A DNA stretch of 37,047 bases from Nitrospiria bacterium (GTDB lineage Bacteria; Nitrospirota; Nitrospiria; 2-01-FULL-66-17), in NCBI GenBank assembly GCA_039914845.1, contig JBDSOK010000220.1, forward strand, positions 1 to 37,047, read 5' to 3'. The position numbers and the translations under genes are program-made. The notes beneath the pieces are model-generated. The model saw only the letters and a program-made list of their open reading frames with translations. It ran no database searches and had not been told where the DNA came from. This document shows, piece by piece, positions 56 through 16,702 of the stretch; positions within the stretch are counted from its first letter, which is position 1; every line of letters starts with the position of its first letter.

Positions 56-160
56 GGCTCATGGCCACTCACGTACGAATGAGTACGCTCCGCGCGCAAG
101 GCAATGCCAATGGCGATCTCCCAACCGGAGCGCCTTGCATCTGACCACTCCTGAACAGCC
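56..160 (+). repeat. Degenerate copy A of the imperfect-palindromic intergenic repeat family (copies B 8917-9034 and C 13949-14096)
   Basis: Shares CTCACGTACGA..GTACGCTCCGC and CGCCTTGCATCTGaCCACTCCTGAACAGcC with copy B. The 5' arm is shortened and there is an insertion in the 3' arm. Confidence 0.6.
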
Positions 161-2733: not shown

Positions 2734-2774
2734 CGAGCCGGGCGAGCCCGAGGTCCGAGTCCTTGGGTATTGGA

Positions 2775-2787
2775 GCCTGTTCAGGAG
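2775..2787 (-). repeat. Solo fragment matching the terminal inverted repeat of the palindromic repeat family
   Basis: GCCTGTTCAGGAG is the exact reverse complement of CTCCTGAACAGGC at 9022-9034. The flanks show only weak similarity. Confidence 0.35.
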
Positions 2788-2897
2788 CTCACCACCTGCA
2801 TAAGTGAGGAGTCCACCTGGGATCTGAGCACACGAAAGCCCGACAGACGATCACCGCCATCCTGGGCGCCGCACTGAAAGCGGCCGATCCCGCTGTT

Positions 2898-7673: not shown

Positions 7674-7735
7674 GAGGCCGGGATTTTTCCGTGAATCGGC
7701 CGCATCGCGGCTGTTCGGGTTCCCCGGGGGGGCAG

Positions 7736-8914
7736 GTGGACGGGTTTTCACGCATCAAACGTCTCCCGCCGTACGTCTTCAACATCGTCACCGGGATGAA
7801 GACGGAGGCGCGGCGGCGCGGGGAGGATATCCTCGACTTCGGGATGGGCAATCCCGACACGCCCACGCCCCGGCACATCCAAGATAAGTTGATCGAAGCG
7901 GTGGGCAATCCCAAGAACCACCGCTATTCCCTCTCCAAGGGCATCCCCAAATTACGTGAGGCGATGGCGGCGTGGTACGGCCGTCACTACGGGGTCGTGC
8001 TCGACCCCGAGACCGAGGTGATCGCGACCATCGGGTCGAAGGAGGGCTTATCGCATCTCGCCCTGGCCATCGTGGAGCCGGGCGACGTGGTGCTGACCCC
8101 GAGCCCGACGTATCCCATCCATCCCTACAGCGTGATTATCGCCGGGGGGCAGGTCAAGAGCATCCCGCTGCGCGCCGATTCGGATTTTTTCGAAGACATG
8201 ACCGCGGCCTACAAGCAGACCTGGCCGCGGCCCAAGCTGCTCATCATCAACTTTCCCCATAACCCCACCACGCGGGTGGTCGACCTCGGCTTTTTCAAAC
8301 AGATCGTCGATTTCGCCGGCGAAAACGGCCTGCTGGTCGTCCACGATCTGGCGTATGCCGATCTGGTCTTCGACGGCTATCAGGCGCCGAGCTTTTTGCA
8401 GGTCCCCGGCGCCAAAGAGGTCGGCGTCGAGTTCTTCACGCTGTCCAAGAGCTACAGCATGCCGGGATGGCGGGTGGGGTTCTGCGTGGGCAATCGCGAA
8501 ATGGTGGGCGCCCTGGCCAAGCTGAAGAGTTACCTCGACTACGGCATCTTCCAACCGATTCAAATTGCCGCCACGGTGGCGCTCAACGGTCCGCAAGACT
8601 GCGTGGGCGAGGTGGTGGAGACCTACCGCAAACGGCGCGACGTCCTGGTCGACGGCCTCAACCGCATCGGCTGGAAGGTGGACAAGCCCCGCGCCACGAT
8701 GTTCGTCTGGGCCCCGATTCCGGAGGCGTTCCGCGGCATGGGATCGCTGGAGTTTTCCAAACGCTTGTTGACCGACGCCAAGGTGGCGGTGTCGCCGGGG
8801 ATCGGGTTTGGAGAATACGGCGACGACGCGGTGCGGTTTGCGCTGGTGGAAAACGAACATCGGACGCGTCAGGCGATACAGGGTCTCAAACGGGTCTTGC
8901 GCCATGGCCTTTAG
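7736..8914 (+). CDS. alaC: Class I/II PLP aminotransferase, AlaC (YfdZ)-like glutamate-pyruvate aminotransferase
   Basis: The N-terminus [13 protein letters not shown]...[18 protein letters not shown] and [11 protein letters not shown] closely resemble my recollection of E. coli AlaC. The GTG at 7736 is preferred over the GTG at 7691. Confidence 0.75.
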
Positions 8915-8916
8915 GA

Positions 8917-9034
8917 GCCTGTCCATGAGCGGCCATCTGCCGCGTTGTCGCTGCGCGTCCGGTGCTCACGTACGAGACAGTACGCTGCGCTCCGGTGCTC
9001 GCTCCGCCTTGCATCTGGCCACTCCTGAACAGGC
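8917..9034 (+). repeat. Copy B of a ~118-bp imperfect-palindromic intergenic repeat (ERIC/MITE-like) with ~24-nt terminal inverted repeats
   Basis: The 5' end GCCTGTCCATGAGCGGCCATCTGC matches the reverse complement of the 3' end GCCTGTTCAGGAGTGGCCAGATGC at 19 of 24 positions. The apical stem is CGTAC-GAGACA-GTACG. TCCGGTGCTC occurs twice, 33 nt apart. Confidence 0.8.
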
Positions 9035-9055
9035 GCATTTCCCTTCTCTCTCCCC

Positions 9056-10369
9056 ATGACTACTCGTCTCGGCATCGGACTGATTGGGTTTGGCACCGTC
9101 GGATCGGGGGTCGTCAAGCTTCTGCGGGAGAACGGCGACTTGTTGGCGCGGCGACTGGGGGTTCCGCTGGAGTTGATCAAGGTCGCGGATCTGGATCTGA
9201 AGCGGGATCGGGGGGTCAACCTGCCGGCCCAGCTGCTGACGACCGACGCGAACGAGGTGCTGTCGCACCCCGATGTGGATGTGGTCGTCGAATTGATCGG
9301 CGGCCTCGAACCGGCCAAGCGCTTCATTCTGGCCGCGATGAGCCGCGGCAAGCACGTGGTCACTGCCAATAAGGCGCTGCTGGCGGCGGCGGGCGAGGAA
9401 TTGTTCGCCGCGGCGGCCGCGCACGGGGTGGATTTCGAGTTCGAAGGCTCGGTGGGGGGAGGGATCCCCATCGTCCGGACGTTGAAAGAGGGCCTGTCCG
9501 CCAACCGGATCGAATCGATCTACGGGATTATCAACGGGACGTCCAATTTCATCCTGACCAAAATGACCGATGAACGCAACGCGTTTGCCGACGTGTTGGC
9601 CGAGGCCCAGCGGGCGGGATACGCGGAGGCCGATCCGACCAGCGACGTGGAAGGCCACGATTCGGCCAATAAGCTGGCGATCCTGGTGGCGTTGGCGTTC
9701 GGCACCCCCGTCACGCTCAAAGAGATTTATACCGAGGGCATTACCGGGATCACGCCGATCGACATCGAGTTCGCCCGCGAGTTCGGCTATCGCATCAAGC
9801 TGCTCGCCATCGCCAAAGCGCAGCAAGGGGCCATCGAAGCGCGCGTGCATCCCACCATGATTCCGGAAGACTATCTGCTGGCCCAGGTGGGCGGGGTGTT
9901 CAATGCGATCTACGTGGTCGGCGACCATGTGGGACAGACGTTGTTTTACGGGCGGGGCGCGGGAGACCAGCCGACCGCGAGCGCGGTGGTCAGCGACCTG
10001 ATCGAGATCGGCCGCAACATGCGGAAGGGCGTCAGCGGTCGCGTGCCGCCGGCCGCGTATCACGACGGAGGACGGCGGCATCTCCGGCTGCTGGCGATGG
10101 ACGAAATTACCAGTCTGTATTATCTGCGCTTTGCCGCGCTCGATCATCCCGGCGTGCTCTCGACCATTGCCGGGGTGCTCGGCAAATACAATATCAGTAT
10201 CTCTTCGGTCATCCAAAAAGGCCGCAAGGCCGGGGGGCCGGTGCCGGTGGTGATGATGACTCATCGCGCGCTGGAGCGGGACGTCCGGCAGGCGCTCGCC
10301 GAGATCGACGGCATGCCCTCGGTCTTGGACAAGACCGTGTTGATTCGCGTGGAAGACGAGGGGGATTGA
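9056..10369 (+). CDS. hom: Homoserine dehydrogenase
   Basis: N-terminal GLIGFGTVGSG Rossmann motif, a catalytic domain, and a C-terminal ACT domain (437 aa). Confidence 0.9.
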   Translation: MTTRLGIGLIGFGTVGSGVVKLLRENGDLLARRLGVPLELIKVADLDLKRDRGVNLPAQLLTTDANEVLSHPDVDVVVELIGGLEPAKRFILAAMSRGKHVVTANKALLAAAGEELFAAAAAHGVDFEFEGSVGGGIPIVRTLKEGLSANRIESIYGIINGTSNFILTKMTDERNAFADVLAEAQRAGYAEADPTSDVEGHDSANKLAILVALAFGTPVTLKEIYTEGITGITPIDIEFAREFGYRIKLLAIAKAQQGAIEARVHPTMIPEDYLLAQVGGVFNAIYVVGDHVGQTLFYGRGAGDQPTASAVVSDLIEIGRNMRKGVSGRVPPAAYHDGGRRHLRLLAMDEITSLYYLRFAALDHPGVLSTIAGVLGKYNISISSVIQKGRKAGGPVPVVMMTHRALERDVRQALAEIDGMPSVLDKTVLIRVEDEGD

Positions 10370-10370
10370 G

Positions 10371-11429
10371 GTGACGCCCTGGCGCGGCATTATCGACCGC
10401 TATCGCGACCTCTTGCCGGTGAGCGATCGGACGCCGGTAATCACGCTCAATGAGGGCAATACGCCCTTGATCGAAACGCACAACCTGGCGGCGGCGATCA
10501 ACCCGGGGCTGCGGCTCTTCCTCAAATTCGAAGGCGCCAATCCTACCGGCTCATTCAAAGACCGGGGGATGACGCTGGCCATCTCGAAGGCGGCGGAAGC
10601 GGGCGCCGGCGCGGTCATCTGCGCCTCCACCGGCAACACGTCGGCGTCGGCGGCGGCCTACGGCGCGCGCGCCGGTCTGGCGGTCTTCGTCCTGATCCCC
10701 GAGGGCAAGATCGCGATGGGCAAGCTCGCTCAAGCGATGATTCACCGCGCGCGGGTGATCCAGGTCGAGGGAAATTTCGACGAGGCGCTCACCATCGTCA
10801 AGGCCGTGGCCGAGCGGTATCCGGTCACCTTGGTCAATTCGATCAATCCGTTTCGCCTGGAGGGTCAAAAGACGGCGGCGTTCGAGGTCTGCGATCAATT
10901 GGGGCGCGCGCCGGATATTCACGTGTTGCCGGTCGGCAACGCCGGCAATATCACCGCCTATTGGCGCGGGTATCGGCAATATCACGAGGCGGGTAAGACC
11001 GCGTCGCTGCCCCGTATGGTCGGTTTTCAAGCCGCCGGCGCCGCGCCGATCGTCTTGGGCCACGTGGTGGACAAGCCGCGAACGATCGCCACCGCCATCC
11101 GCATCGGCAACCCCGCCAGTTGGAAGGCGGCGGTCGAAGCGGCCGAGCAGTCCAAGGGGGAAATCAATCTGGTGACCGACGAGGAGATCGTCGAAGCGTA
11201 TCGCCTGATCGCCGGATTGGAGGGCGTGTTTTGCGAGCCGGCATCGGCTGCATCGGTGGCGGGCGTGATCAAGCTGAACAAAGCGGCCTATTTCCAGGGC
11301 GGCGAGACGATCGTCTGTACCTTGACCGGGCATGGGCTCAAAGACGCCGACATCGCCATGTCCGTGTCCCAGAAACCGACCACCATCAAGGCGAGTCTGG
11401 AAGACGTCGTTAAAGTCTTGGGCTATTAG
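10371..11429 (+). CDS. thrC: Threonine synthase
   Basis: LNEGNTPL...FEGANPTGSFKDRG is the PLP-lysine motif. GTG start lies 1 nt after the hom stop. Confidence 0.9.
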   Translation: MTPWRGIIDRYRDLLPVSDRTPVITLNEGNTPLIETHNLAAAINPGLRLFLKFEGANPTGSFKDRGMTLAISKAAEAGAGAVICASTGNTSASAAAYGARAGLAVFVLIPEGKIAMGKLAQAMIHRARVIQVEGNFDEALTIVKAVAERYPVTLVNSINPFRLEGQKTAAFEVCDQLGRAPDIHVLPVGNAGNITAYWRGYRQYHEAGKTASLPRMVGFQAAGAAPIVLGHVVDKPRTIATAIRIGNPASWKAAVEAAEQSKGEINLVTDEEIVEAYRLIAGLEGVFCEPASAASVAGVIKLNKAAYFQGGETIVCTLTGHGLKDADIAMSVSQKPTTIKASLEDVVKVLGY

Positions 11430-12680: not shown

Positions 12681-12733
12681 AGGAAGAGAAGGCGTTGTTG
12701 GTTGCGTGGTGTCGCGAACAACGGCCTCTCACC

Positions 12734-13960
12734 ATGGCACTCATCGTCCAAAAATACGGCGGCACCTCCGTCGGCTCGCCCGAGCGGATCCACGCGGTGG
12801 CCGAACGGGTGATCGCCACCGCCAAGGCCGGCGATCAAGTGGTCGTGGTCCTGTCGGCGATGAGCGGGGAAACCGATCGGCTTGTGAAGCTGGCCCACCG
12901 GATGAGTCCCGCGCCGGATGAGCGCGAGCTGGATCTCTTGCTCTCGACCGGCGAGCGCGTGACCATCGCCTTGCTGGCGATGGCGCTGAACGCGCGGGGG
13001 TGCCCGGCGCGCTCGTTCACCGGCCGCCAGGTGGGGATCGTGACCGATGCCGTGCACACCCGGGCGCGAATCGAGCGCGTGTCTGCCGATCGTGTCCGGG
13101 AGGCGTTGGCGGAGGGCGTCGTGCCGGTAGTGGCCGGCTTTCAAGGCATCAACGAGCACTCAGACGTGACGACGCTGGGCCGCGGCGGATCGGACACCAC
13201 GGCGGTCGCCCTGGCGGCAGCGCTCAAGGCCGATCGCTGCGATATCTACACCGACGTGGACGGCGTGTACACCAGCGACCCGAATGTCGTCGCCGACGCC
13301 GCCAAGCTGGAGAAAGTCTCCTACGAAGAGATGCTGGAGATGGCGAGTCTGGGCGCCAAAGTGCTGCAAACCCGATCGGTCGAGTTTGCCATGAAGTATC
13401 TCGTGCCCATCCGGGTGCTCTCGAGTTTTGCCGACGCGCCCAGCGGGACGCTGGTGACCAAGGAGGATCGTGACATGGAACAGGTCGTGGTTTCGGGCGT
13501 CACCTACGACCGCCATCAGGCGAAGATCACGTTGCTCGGCGTGCCGGACCGTCCCGGGATTGCGGCCCGGCTCTTCGGCGGCATCGCCAAGCAGAGCGTC
13601 GTCGTGGACATGATCATCCAGAACATCAGCCAGGACGGCCTGACCGACATCTCGTTCACGGTGCCGCGCGGCGATATGAAGAAGGCGGTCGATCTGGTCT
13701 CCACGCTCTCGCGCGAGATCGGCGCCCGCGACGTGCAAGTGACCGAAGACATCGCCAAGGTGTCGATCGTCGGGGTGGGCATGCGATCCCATTCCGGGGT
13801 GGCCGCGACGATGTTCGAGACGCTGGCGCGCGAGGGAATCAATATCATGATGATCTCGACCAGCGAGATCAAAATTTCGTGCGTGGTGGACGCAAAATAT
13901 ACTGAACTGGCGGTGCGCTCGCTTCACGACGCGTTCGAATTGGGGGCAGCCCGTCCATGA
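12734..13960 (+). CDS. lysC: Aspartate kinase
   Basis: [14 protein letters not shown]...[15 protein letters not shown] plus tandem C-terminal ACT domains. A TTG at 12695, behind an AGGAAG box, is an alternative start. Confidence 0.9.
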
Positions 13961-14096
13961 ACGGCCATCTCGGGAAGCAGCATTTGTCCGTCACGCTAGA
14001 ACTGCGTTGCCGCTGCGCGTCCGGTGCTCACGTGCCACCCAGCACGCTCCGCTCCGGTGCTCGCGGCGCCTTGTATCTGGCCATTCCTGAACGGGC
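13949..14096 (+). repeat. Copy C of the imperfect-palindromic intergenic repeat, with a 30-nt insertion in the 5' arm
   Basis: The core aligns to copy B (GCGTTGcCGCTGCGCGTCCGGTGCTCACGT ... CGCTCCGGTGCTCGC ... CCTTGtATCTGGCCAtTCCTGAACgGGC). The ends are GCCCGT.../...ACGGGC. The element contains the lysC stop codon. Confidence 0.8.
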
Positions 14097-14144
14097 TTCC
14101 TGGCGTATCGCTGAGATGTCAGTGTGAACATTCCAAAGAAAACG

Positions 14145-15731
14145 ATGATCGAGTTGTACGATACGACGCTGCGGGATGGGGCGCAGGCCGAGGATATTGC
14201 GTTCTCGGTCGAGGATAAGCTCCGCATCGTCCAGAAACTCGACGAGCTGGGCATTCCCTTTATCGAAGGGGGATGGCCGGGGGCCAATCCCAAGGACGGT
14301 GAATTTTTCAAAGAGGTCCGCAAGCTGACGCTCAAACACGCGCAGATTGCCGCGTTCGGTTCCACGCGCCGCGCCGACCGCCGCGCGCAGGACGATCCCC
14401 AGCTCGCGGCGTTGTTGGAGGCGGAGACGCCGGTCATCACCATCTTTGGGAAGAGCTGGGATCTGCACGTCACCGAGGCGCTCGGGGTGTCGCTCAAGAA
14501 AAATATCGAGTTGATCGGCGATTCGGTGGCGTACCTGAAGTCCAAGCGGCGGATGGTGGTCTACGATGCCGAGCATTTCTTCGACGGCTATCGGGCCAAT
14601 CCTGAATACGCCTTGGAGACGGTGGCGCGGGCGGAGGCGGCGGGCGCCGACCGCATCGCACTCTGCGATACCAACGGGGGCGCCATGCCGTGGGAGGTGC
14701 GCGACGTGGTCGCCGCCGTCGCCGCGCAGATCAAGACGCCGCTGGGGATCCACGCCCATAACGACGGCGAGGTTGCGGTGGCCAATTCGCTGATCGCGGT
14801 GGAGCAGGGCGTGGTGCAGGTGCAGGGGACGATCAATGGCTTCGGCGAGCGATGCGGCAACGCCAACCTCTGCTCGCTCATCGCCAACCTCTGTCTTAAA
14901 CTGGACCGTCGCGTCCTCGGTGAGGCGCAACTGCGCCATCTGACGGAGGCCTCGCGATTCGTGTACGAGATTGCGAATCTTCCGGCGCAGAAGCGCCAGC
15001 CCTACGTCGGCGAAAGCGCGTTCGCCCATAAGGGCGGCATCCACGTTCACGCGGTCCGCAAAAAGGCGGAGACCTACGAGCACGTGCCGCCGGAGGTGGT
15101 CGGGAACCGCCGCCGGATCTTGGTGTCCGACGCCGCGGGGAAGGGCAGTCTCCTGGAGAAGGCGGCGGAGTACGGCCTCGACCTGGACGCATCCGACCCG
15201 CGGCTGCAGGGCATTCTCACCACGTTGAAAGATCTCGAAGGCCAGGGCTATCAGTTCGAAGGCGCCGAAGGGTCGTTTGAGTTGCTGATGCGCAAAGCGC
15301 TCGGTCACCACCGACGTTTTTTCGATCTCATCGGGTTTCGCGTGATCGTGGAGAAGCGGCGCGAGGGCGAAGAGCCGCTCTGCGAGGCCACCATCATGGT
15401 GCGTGTGGGCCAGGAGGTCGAGCATACCGCGTCGGTCGGCGCGGGACCCGTCAATGCGCTGGATCACGCCTTGCGCAAGGCCCTCGAGGGGTTTTACCCG
15501 CAACTCGCCGACGTGCGATTGCTCGACTACAAGGTGCGGGTTCTGGCAGCCCAGGGAGGCACCGCCTCGCGCGTGCGCGTGCTGATCGAGTCGGGGGATC
15601 AGACCGGGAAGTGGGGGACGGTCGGGGTTTCCTCGAATATCATCGAGGCCAGTTGGCAGGCGCTGGTCGATAGTATCGAATTCCGGCTGCTCCGGCCGGC
15701 CGGGCCCACGCTCCAGGCCGGCGATCGGTAG
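14145..15731 (+). CDS. cimA: (R)-citramalate synthase (CimA; 2-isopropylmalate synthase family)
   Basis: [16 protein letters not shown]...[12 protein letters not shown], plus a C-terminal LeuA-dimer-like regulatory domain (528 aa). A GTG at 14124 is an alternative start. Confidence 0.8.

Positions 15732-16183: not shown

Positions 16184-16702
<519 letters not shown>

Follow-up and report, generated by a model that had tools for sequence, protein, structure and literature searches.

What is the long imperfect palindrome that recurs in the short gaps between plus-strand operon genes of a 37,047-nt contig from a Nitrospiria bacterium (JBDSOK010000220.1, assembly GCA_039914845.1; the whole of this stretch is hereafter the window)? 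A first-pass annotation, made from the letters alone, had described three copies of about 118 bp whose differences come in pairs that keep the arms complementary, and had likened them to ERIC, Correia or BOX-type repeats, either as a selected hairpin or as an element bearing terminal inverted repeats (TIRs). From the analysis presented here we propose, with a probability of roughly 0.7, that the repeats are copies of a non-autonomous MITE (a miniature transposable element with inverted repeats) of about 155 bp, of which there are hundreds per genome in one uncultured Nitrospirota lineage. The earlier comparison was right in kind, as the repeat is mobile and has TIRs flanked by TA; what it missed were the true ends and the 3' tail, the stop codon as target, the bias in orientation, and the better folding of the minus strand.

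A mobile repeat at TA dinucleotides

The repeat is found well beyond the window. Relatives of the window operon were reached through homologues of hom, not through the repeat itself, and L-numbered labels (L013, L031 and so on) denote the related loci or contigs that were compared with the window. A search profile derived from 31 copies detects the element 241 times (223 unique copies) in 1.09 Mb of related DNA, and an exact-pattern scan of one genome per species gives 30 loci in five species, all of them Nitrospirota metagenome-assembled genomes (MAGs), including Nitrospirae RIFCSPHIGHO2_01_FULL_66_17, NC_groundwater_959, a Candidatus Manganitrophaceae chromosome and two others. The left-arm pattern occurs in at least 120 metagenome stretches, and in all the element is known from at least eight Nitrospirota MAG species. 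The earlier caveat, that there might be no further copies and that local duplication might account for the ones seen, falls with these counts. The density is about one copy per 10 kb in the loci fetched with hom, and three to four per 37 kb in the window, from which we estimate some hundreds of copies per genome. Scans of viral contigs and plasmids gave no copies. The first-pass annotation could not assign the sequence to any named family, and nor can we: Rfam has no match to the element at the gathering score or at E ≤ 10, only tRNA and signal recognition particle RNA being matched elsewhere, and we found no existing name for it in the literature.

The junctions with flanking DNA provide further insight into how the copies came to be where they are. 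TA precedes the terminal GGAGCC in 129 of 166 copies and follows the terminal CTCC in 37 of 52, and it is present on both sides in 27 of the 46 copies in which both ends are readable. Outside the left TA stands C (59%), G (29%) or T (10%), as at a GC-rich third codon position; outside the right TA stands G (28 copies) or A (8), which is the last base of a TAG or TAA that has been displaced. There is one clean empty site, with a single TA: L142 reads CTG-TA-GCG, and L093 and L155 read CTG-TA-(element)-TA-GGCG, with flanks that are 90–92% identical. L070 and L115 were rejected as a second such pair because their junction is too rearranged for a duplication to be read.

The element is mobile, with presence and absence polymorphic at five junctions (alaT/hom, hom/thrC, thrC/apgM, lysC/cimA and NlpC/aldolase). 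The alaT/hom junction, which we call site B after the window copy that fills it, is empty in L031–L035, L157 and L158, where a native TAG or TAA stands at the same codon position. The lysC/cimA junction (site C) is filled in the window, L031, L033, L034, L035 and L158; in L032 it has no insertion, and the TGA of lysC overlaps the GTG of cimA. Extra copies lie at hom/thrC and thrC/apgM in L035 that are absent from the window, and at the NlpC/aldolase junction L032 and L035 have a copy and the window does not. The TA of the thrC stop has been entered in opposite orientations in L158 (4814-5010, plus) and L035 (12522-12668, minus), and these two insertions are independent; the same TA is empty in the window (11427-11429), L032 and L034.

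Most of these sites are stop codons. Where the upstream gene is co-directional (129 copies), its TAG stop consists of the left TA and the first G of the element in 94; a convergent gene stops at the right TA in 14 copies, and two copies (L032:5638-5792 and L035:2291-2446) lie exactly between two convergent stop codons. Because both termini begin with G, TAG is rebuilt in either orientation: a flanking gene whose TAG or TAA stop is entered at its TA would get a TAG back. We take this to be why most surviving copies coincide with stop codons, whether in operon junctions or between genes that converge. At L098:961-1154 the element abuts both convergent stops, and the same gene pair in L126 (5728-5777) has a GC-rich terminator-like hairpin instead.

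In alignments the complete element measures about 155 nt (the profile is 156 nt long) and has the ends TA-GGAGCCTGTCC ... GGACAsrCTCC-TA. In greater detail, the left end reads (C/G)TA-GGAGCCTGTCCATGAACGGCCATCTGCGGCGTTGTC, the left arm is GGAGCCTGTCCATGAACGGCCATCTGC, and the inverted arms are about 27 nt long. The inner stem is variable, with at least three subtypes that are mutually unrelated and each internally complementary (GGAATCCCTCC/GGGGGGATTCC, GCCTTGCGTGC/GCGCGCAAGGC and GCGTCCGGTGC/GCTCCGGTGC); past it comes TCACGTACGAnnCAGTACGCTCC. The apical hairpin, CGTAC-6nt-GTACG, is conserved. The right arm GCATCTGGCCATTCCTGAACAGGCTCC (consensus CGCCTTGCATCTGrCCAyTCCTGAACAGGCTCC) is followed by a tail of 28 nt, AACACCCGAATACTCGGACAsrCTCC-TA(G/A), the terminal part of which is a second inverted copy of the left terminus. 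There are thus two matches to the left end on the right, GGAGCCTGTCC with the outer GGACAsrCTCC, and the left arm with the inner right arm, at 22 of 27 positions. Coding capacity is limited to incidental open reading frames (ORFs) of 31–47 codons, with no transposase, and the small size fits a MITE.

Many copies contain nested insertions: in the left arm a module of 31 nt, at the apex a block of about 40 nt, and in the right arm one of about 45 nt. The 31-nt module (CGGGAAGCAGCATTCGTCCGTCACGCTAGA) occupies one fixed left-arm position in nine copies (window copy C and eight others), is present twice in the L016 copy (1801-1833 and 1883-1915) and occurs once outside any copy (L013:5794-5825); it may itself be a very small insertion element, or else a conversion tract. 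The left end of the L025 copy (875-1029) has a tandem duplication of the element's first 14 nt, TAGGAGCCTGTCCA (region 1016-1045). There is also a sister family (L031:1613-1719, L028:2298-2401 and L063:543-646) with the same inner core and apical hairpin and with other, again complementary, outer arms (GCAGGCTGCTGAAAAAGTCCATCTGC ... GCATCTGGAGCTTTTTGAGCAGCCTGC), which at the NlpC/aldolase junction sits where the main family sits in L032 and L035.

Compensatory changes, folding and orientation

The paired differences that had been listed between copies B and C of the window (GCCTGT/ACAGGC versus GCCCGT/ACGGGC, GAG/CTC versus GAA/TTC, and CGTAC/GTACG versus CGTGC/GCACG) are all in the sequence, and across 44 copies the outer pair is never broken, being U-A in 36 and C-G in 8. 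Covariation was tested on 85 distinct insertion-free cores. Of all cells 90.6% are paired, compared with 29–47% when the partner column is slid, and 14 of 40 pairs change on both sides. Doubly changed cells number 228 against 89.7 ± 8.9 in shuffles, and the covariation score is 0.176 against 0.073 ± 0.004, with 0 of 500 shuffles reaching the observed value in either case and slid controls scoring no higher than 0.056; the presence of subfamilies inflates the covariation counts. The possibility raised at the outset, that paired changes are no more frequent than chance, is at odds with values that exceed all 500 shuffles and all slid controls. The compensatory pattern is real, notwithstanding that it may not mean a selected RNA: in palindromic DNA, template switching can correct one arm against the other.

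The two strands do not fold equally well. For copy B the minus strand has a folding energy of -65.2 kcal/mol (z -5.7) and the plus strand -56.0 kcal/mol (z -3.3), for copy C the values are -72.5 and -62.4 kcal/mol respectively, and the means over the family are -65.6 kcal/mol for sense and -78.6 kcal/mol for antisense, a gap of about 13 kcal/mol. In 89 of 90 cores it is the antisense strand that is the more stable. There are four positions of conserved mismatch, each of them C.A on the sense strand and hence G.U on the antisense strand, and C.A cells outnumber G.U cells on the sense strand by 264 to 55.

Orientation is strongly biased. Between co-directional genes there are 75 sense and 12 antisense copies (about 6:1; p=3e-12), a co-directional upstream gene is present for 149 copies and absent for 21, and the bias is weaker where there is no close downstream gene (44 versus 18; Fisher p=0.04). 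As a TA-duplicating transposase should insert both ways, and both orientations do occur at thrC, we read the bias as the result of selection after insertion within operons. The element would be co-transcribed as a long hairpin lacking a U-tract, and selection would mainly keep the orientation with the weaker RNA hairpin, that in which C.A mismatches stand in place of G.U pairs; the orientation kept would also place a mini-ORF, preceded by AGGAG and 7 nt and starting with ATG, directly 3' of the stop codon. Neither a terminator (U-tract) nor a sigma-70-like promoter gives a signal above shuffles within the element.

This mini-ORF arises from the left end TAGGAGCCTGTCCATG, which reads as a stop codon, AGGAG, 7 nt and ATG, with the ATG present in 153 copies. 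The predicted mini-ORF of copy B has 44 codons (8925..9059, plus strand; AGGAG at 8913-8917), and its TGA overlaps the ATG of hom as ATGA. That of copy C has 56 codons (13957..14127, plus strand); its ATG overlaps the lysC TGA as ATGA, and its TGA overlaps the cimA GTG as GTGA. The bridge from the lysC stop to the cimA start stays open in the orthologous copies at site C, with lengths of 44, 44, 59, 60 and 65 codons despite several indels, and the probability of four independent length changes that all stay in frame at this site is about 0.012; in its ancestral, empty state the site already had a GTGA overlap. A conserved peptide is ruled out, as the 3' frame differs among the subtypes and stops at CATC-TGA, TCC-TGA or the terminal TAG. 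Over the whole family a stop overlaps the downstream start in 20 cases in the ATG frame and in 11 in the sole other open frame (p=0.07), and the enrichment of the ATG frame is not significant after orthologues are collapsed.

A tentative suggestion, which we regard as doubtful, is that the mini-ORF is a translational-coupling relay that keeps the expression of operon junctions coupled after they have been split by an insertion. In such a model a ribosome ending on the rebuilt stop would re-initiate on the ATG of the element, melt the hairpin, and then terminate on or near the start codon of the next gene. If true, this could explain the 6:1 sense bias, the weaker hairpin on the sense strand and the open lysC/cimA frame. 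On a JGI contig with P0010 (genes 10148-10330) the gene caller has annotated a 60-aa ORF between lysC and cimA with a 4-nt overlap of the lysC stop; this ORF is the mini-ORF of the element, and such elements seed hypothetical-protein calls in public data.

What moves the element

Symmetrical inverted ends and TA flanks together suggest that the transposase, supplied in trans, is a DDE enzyme of the IS630/Tc1-mariner type. The target preferred by IS630 is CTAG, with duplication of the TA. In the model that we favor, the element would insert at a TA dinucleotide so that its ends become flanked by TA on both sides, and it is probably mobilised in trans by a cut-and-paste transposase of this type. 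As to the kind of element, a DDE-type MITE is likely and an element of RAYT or TIRYT type unlikely.

Several points weigh against this proposal. The first-pass annotation had advised looking for a cognate transposase, and none was found: no autonomous element with matching ends turned up in the 1.09 Mb, which covers part of each genome. By sequence alone, a 2-bp duplication at TA looks the same as the insertion after a TA, without duplication, of an element with a 3' TA of its own. Some empty alleles end in TGA and not in TAG or TAA, namely hom/thrC in the window, L031 and L034, and also L088 and L070. A conserved core beside a tail spacer that varies freely is not what is predicted for a purely selfish MITE in neutral decay. 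Nor is the hairpin easily taken for a simple selected RNA, as it is the untranscribed strand that folds better, which argues against that reading.

The core is indeed well conserved; at one site, a pair of orthologous copies is 87% identical and the flanking coding DNA 63–72%. L016 and L017 have different subtypes at the same orthologous site in two species, and the L093 and L155 copies are alike in their ends and tail and different in their interiors. The three observations indicate either that copies have recombined with or converted one another, or that one TA has been used more than once. Two kinds of candidate for an autonomous partner were rejected: solo TIRs and TIR pairs 600–3000 bp apart proved to be only MITE copies with nested insertions, and repeated segments of 0.6–3 kb with unrelated flanks yielded only an ars gene pair. 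That pair, an arsenate-reductase gene with an aquaporin-like gene (L085:3543-4665 and L104:2461-3606), is 89% identical between two unrelated flanking contexts, which suggests a small mobile ars cassette.

The alternative that survives best, although we consider it improbable, is a REPIN/BIME-like element that owes its movement to a tyrosine transposase (HUH, Y1) of RAYT or TIRYT type, domesticated and present in a single copy. A REP unit is a self-complementary palindrome of 20–50 nt preceded by a tetranucleotide tag, most often GTAG (PMC8266576), and head-to-head REP dimers form one hairpin with compensated spacers (PMC3116915). Applied here, the outer nTAG would be a REP-type tag and part of the element, the arms would be inverted REP units in a head-to-head dimer, the hairpin would form in single-stranded DNA on one strand, and the population would have been inherited vertically for a long time. 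A layout of nTAG-arm ... arm-CTAn in which the ends are highly conserved and the spacer is compensated and conserved in length is consistent with this, and the two inverted units do make one hairpin. So are the hundreds of copies without a multi-copy insertion sequence (IS) having been found, the confinement of the family to one lineage with orthologous copies persisting across species, and the consistently better folding of one strand. REPINs and GTAG-REP dimers with their RAYT are likewise palindromic doublets with conserved ends and a compensated spacer, present in hundreds of vertically persisting copies, whose termini donate TAG stops (PMC3116915, PMC3733652).

However, judged from the consensus, the arms lack the internal stem-loop that REP units have by definition and do not fold on themselves. 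The outermost base, which should be fixed in a tag, varies on the left (C 59%, G 29%, T 10%) and on the right (as complement, C 76%, T 22%, G 3%), and this variation is explained by the flanking codon context and not by a tag. The termini TA-GGAG...CTCC-TA are symmetrical, unlike the asymmetric ends of HUH elements, and the element is about 125–155 nt long compared with about 70–110 for REPINs. No RAYT-like ORF was found in the 1.09 Mb, again part of each genome. Among the candidates tried, tblastn with E. coli RayT gave one weak match, which was rejected as spurious because it lies inside a GspE-like ATPase gene, and the ORFs bracketed by inverted copies are ordinary genes (PCD, pseudouridine synthase, FAH, PstB, OmpA-like and similar).

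Much less probable again is a selected, cis-acting structured RNA (an mRNA stabiliser, a processing site or an attenuator) that is not mobile and is needed at each operon junction. The significant covariation, the co-orientation of most copies with transcription and the conservation of the core above that of neighbouring coding DNA would all be expected of such an RNA, and the convergent pair at which the element replaces the terminator-like hairpin of L126 may be read in the same way. Against it, orthologous junctions are freely empty or filled among close relatives, which speaks against necessity, and the sites belong to unrelated genes of every kind. The transcribed strand is the one with conserved C.A mismatches where the opposite strand has G.U pairs, 12 copies inside operons are antisense, the element tolerates truncation and nested insertion, and there is no U-tract and no Rfam match even at E ≤ 10. 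As the sole explanation, a structured RNA is largely refuted by the empty and filled sites. Chance similarity or a duplication confined to the window, which accounts for no more than the three copies first seen, is refuted by the 241 copies in unrelated contexts across many assemblies and by the right-arm 24-mer CCTTGYATCTGRCCAYTCCTGAAC, which has 3 matches in the window against 0.00 expected from shuffles.

The MITE that we propose has close counterparts among known repeats. Bacterial MITEs are 100–200 bp long, end in TIRs and TA, and are transcribed into long stem-loops (PMC2229807). RUP is similarly small (107 bp) and non-coding, with inverted ends, TA insertion and about 100 copies, and is tied to IS630-Spn1 by TIR similarity and the TA target, so that mobilisation in trans by an IS630-family transposase has been proposed for it, as it is here (PMC2229807). 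Unlike our element, RUP has a partner IS known by TIR similarity, and none was found here; neither stop-codon siting nor a duplicated right-end repeat is reported for RUP, and the two have no sequence similarity. Correia/NEMIS elements of Neisseria, of 100–155 bp with TIRs of about 24–26 bp and TA at both termini, are co-transcribed with their neighbours as a long hairpin and exist in length variants (PMC2229807). They carry an IHF site and promoter elements (no promoter signal was found in our element), and their transcripts are RNase III substrates; they belong to a different phylum and are unrelated in sequence; ours is instead targeted to stop codons, with a 6:1 bias in orientation. ERIC (IRU, RU-1) of enterobacteria, about 127 bp long, is also an imperfect palindrome with TA termini, intergenic in transcribed regions and with ORFs running through it (PMC2229807), but its TIRs are 7 bp, its copies number tens and not hundreds, and its sequence is unrelated.

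The window copies and the meaning of the family

All three plus-strand copies of the first-pass annotation are present on inspection where it had placed them. Two of them, B and C, are good copies; the third, A, is a rearranged partial copy, and to these must be added a fourth remnant on the minus strand. The true start of copy B lies 5 nt earlier than was given, at the TA of the alaT stop (8912-8914), and a count by hand confirms that its 5' end matches the reverse complement of its 3' end at 19 of 24 positions. The length of about 118 bp does not hold for the family, as complete copies elsewhere have a further 3' tail of about 28 nt that is gone from both B and C.

Copy B (8912..9037, plus strand; profile match 8912-9040, E=2e-37) lies between the alaT-like aminotransferase gene and hom, and consists of TA (8912-8913) and the core GGAGCC...GAACAGGC, without the 3' tail. 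The TAG stop of the aminotransferase gene (8912..8914, plus strand) is made of the flanking TA and the first G of the element, and copy B is a fairly recent insertion in this stop codon. Copy C (13946..14098, plus strand; profile match 13946-14104, E=5e-30) lies between lysC and cimA and has a decayed 5' end in addition to lacking the tail. The two are collinear except for the 31-nt insertion in C, where the module (CGGGAAGCAGCATTTGTCCGTCACGCTAGA) occupies 13969..14000 of the plus strand inside the left arm. The TGA stop of lysC (13958..13960, plus strand) is inside copy C, within CCATGAAC, so that lysC extends 12 nt into the element and its final four codons (A-A-R-P) are element-derived; lysC of the relatives likewise ends in ...ARP or ...NRP before the stop. 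Copy C is an old insertion, common to several species, that now supplies the end of lysC.

Copy A (56..160, plus strand) matches the profile at 62-158 over model positions 49-123 only (E=2e-13). It has an internal deletion in the left arm and a 28-nt insertion in the right half, with the apical hairpin and right arm intact; within the window the left-arm motif is found in copies B and C only. The fourth piece (about 2745..2790, minus strand) was read from the sequence and gives a weak profile match (2787-2753, E=0.008). It comprises the 3' tail and the inner right repeat (GGAGCCTGTTCAGGAG on the plus strand) and lies directly past the stop of the 2083-2733 gene. Both it and copy A are decaying copies.

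The operon that houses copies B and C is one of amino-acid biosynthesis, in the order alanine-transaminase-like gene, B, hom, thrC, apgM-like gene, lysC, C and cimA. On the plus strand the alanine-transaminase-like gene (alaT; from the ORF list, NCBIfam alanine transaminase) is at 7691-8914 and hom, 3' of copy B, at 9056-10369; lysC, 5' of copy C, is at 12695-13960 and cimA, 3' of it, at 14124-15731. A tRNA gene (16626-16699) is the sole Rfam match in the window. Just 5' of copy A, at 1-30, a GC-rich hairpin CCCTCCCCCGCAAGGGGGGAGGG followed by AAATTT looks like the terminator of a gene truncated by the window edge. Elsewhere in the related DNA, L115:4457-4574 holds an unrelated 117-nt insertion with two CCCCGCAGCTTGCTGCGGGG-like hairpins that is absent at L070:3513, the contigs being 97% identical; it has the look of one more family of small mobile repeats in that community.

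The element makes up a MITE family of uncultured Nitrospirota that had no name before, and it belongs to a well-known kind of bacterial repeat, so that current understanding of bacterial MITEs or REPINs is not overturned. Its notable details are the rebuilding of stop codons, the strong sense bias, the asymmetry that places the better hairpin on the untranscribed strand, and the nested modules. For annotation, it is an unnamed and abundant repeat (about one copy per 10–15 kb) in a poorly studied lineage related to manganese oxidisers, in which gene callers make hypothetical genes of the mini-ORF and assemblies break at the element. The empty and filled sites are usable for strain typing and for the population genetics of these MAGs. 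For the biology of the family, termini that start with G and restore TAG either way make stop codons safe landing sites in a compact genome, and the orientation bias, together with an asymmetry that puts the stronger hairpin on the 'wrong' strand, constitutes a natural experiment on how selection filters hairpin insertions in operons.

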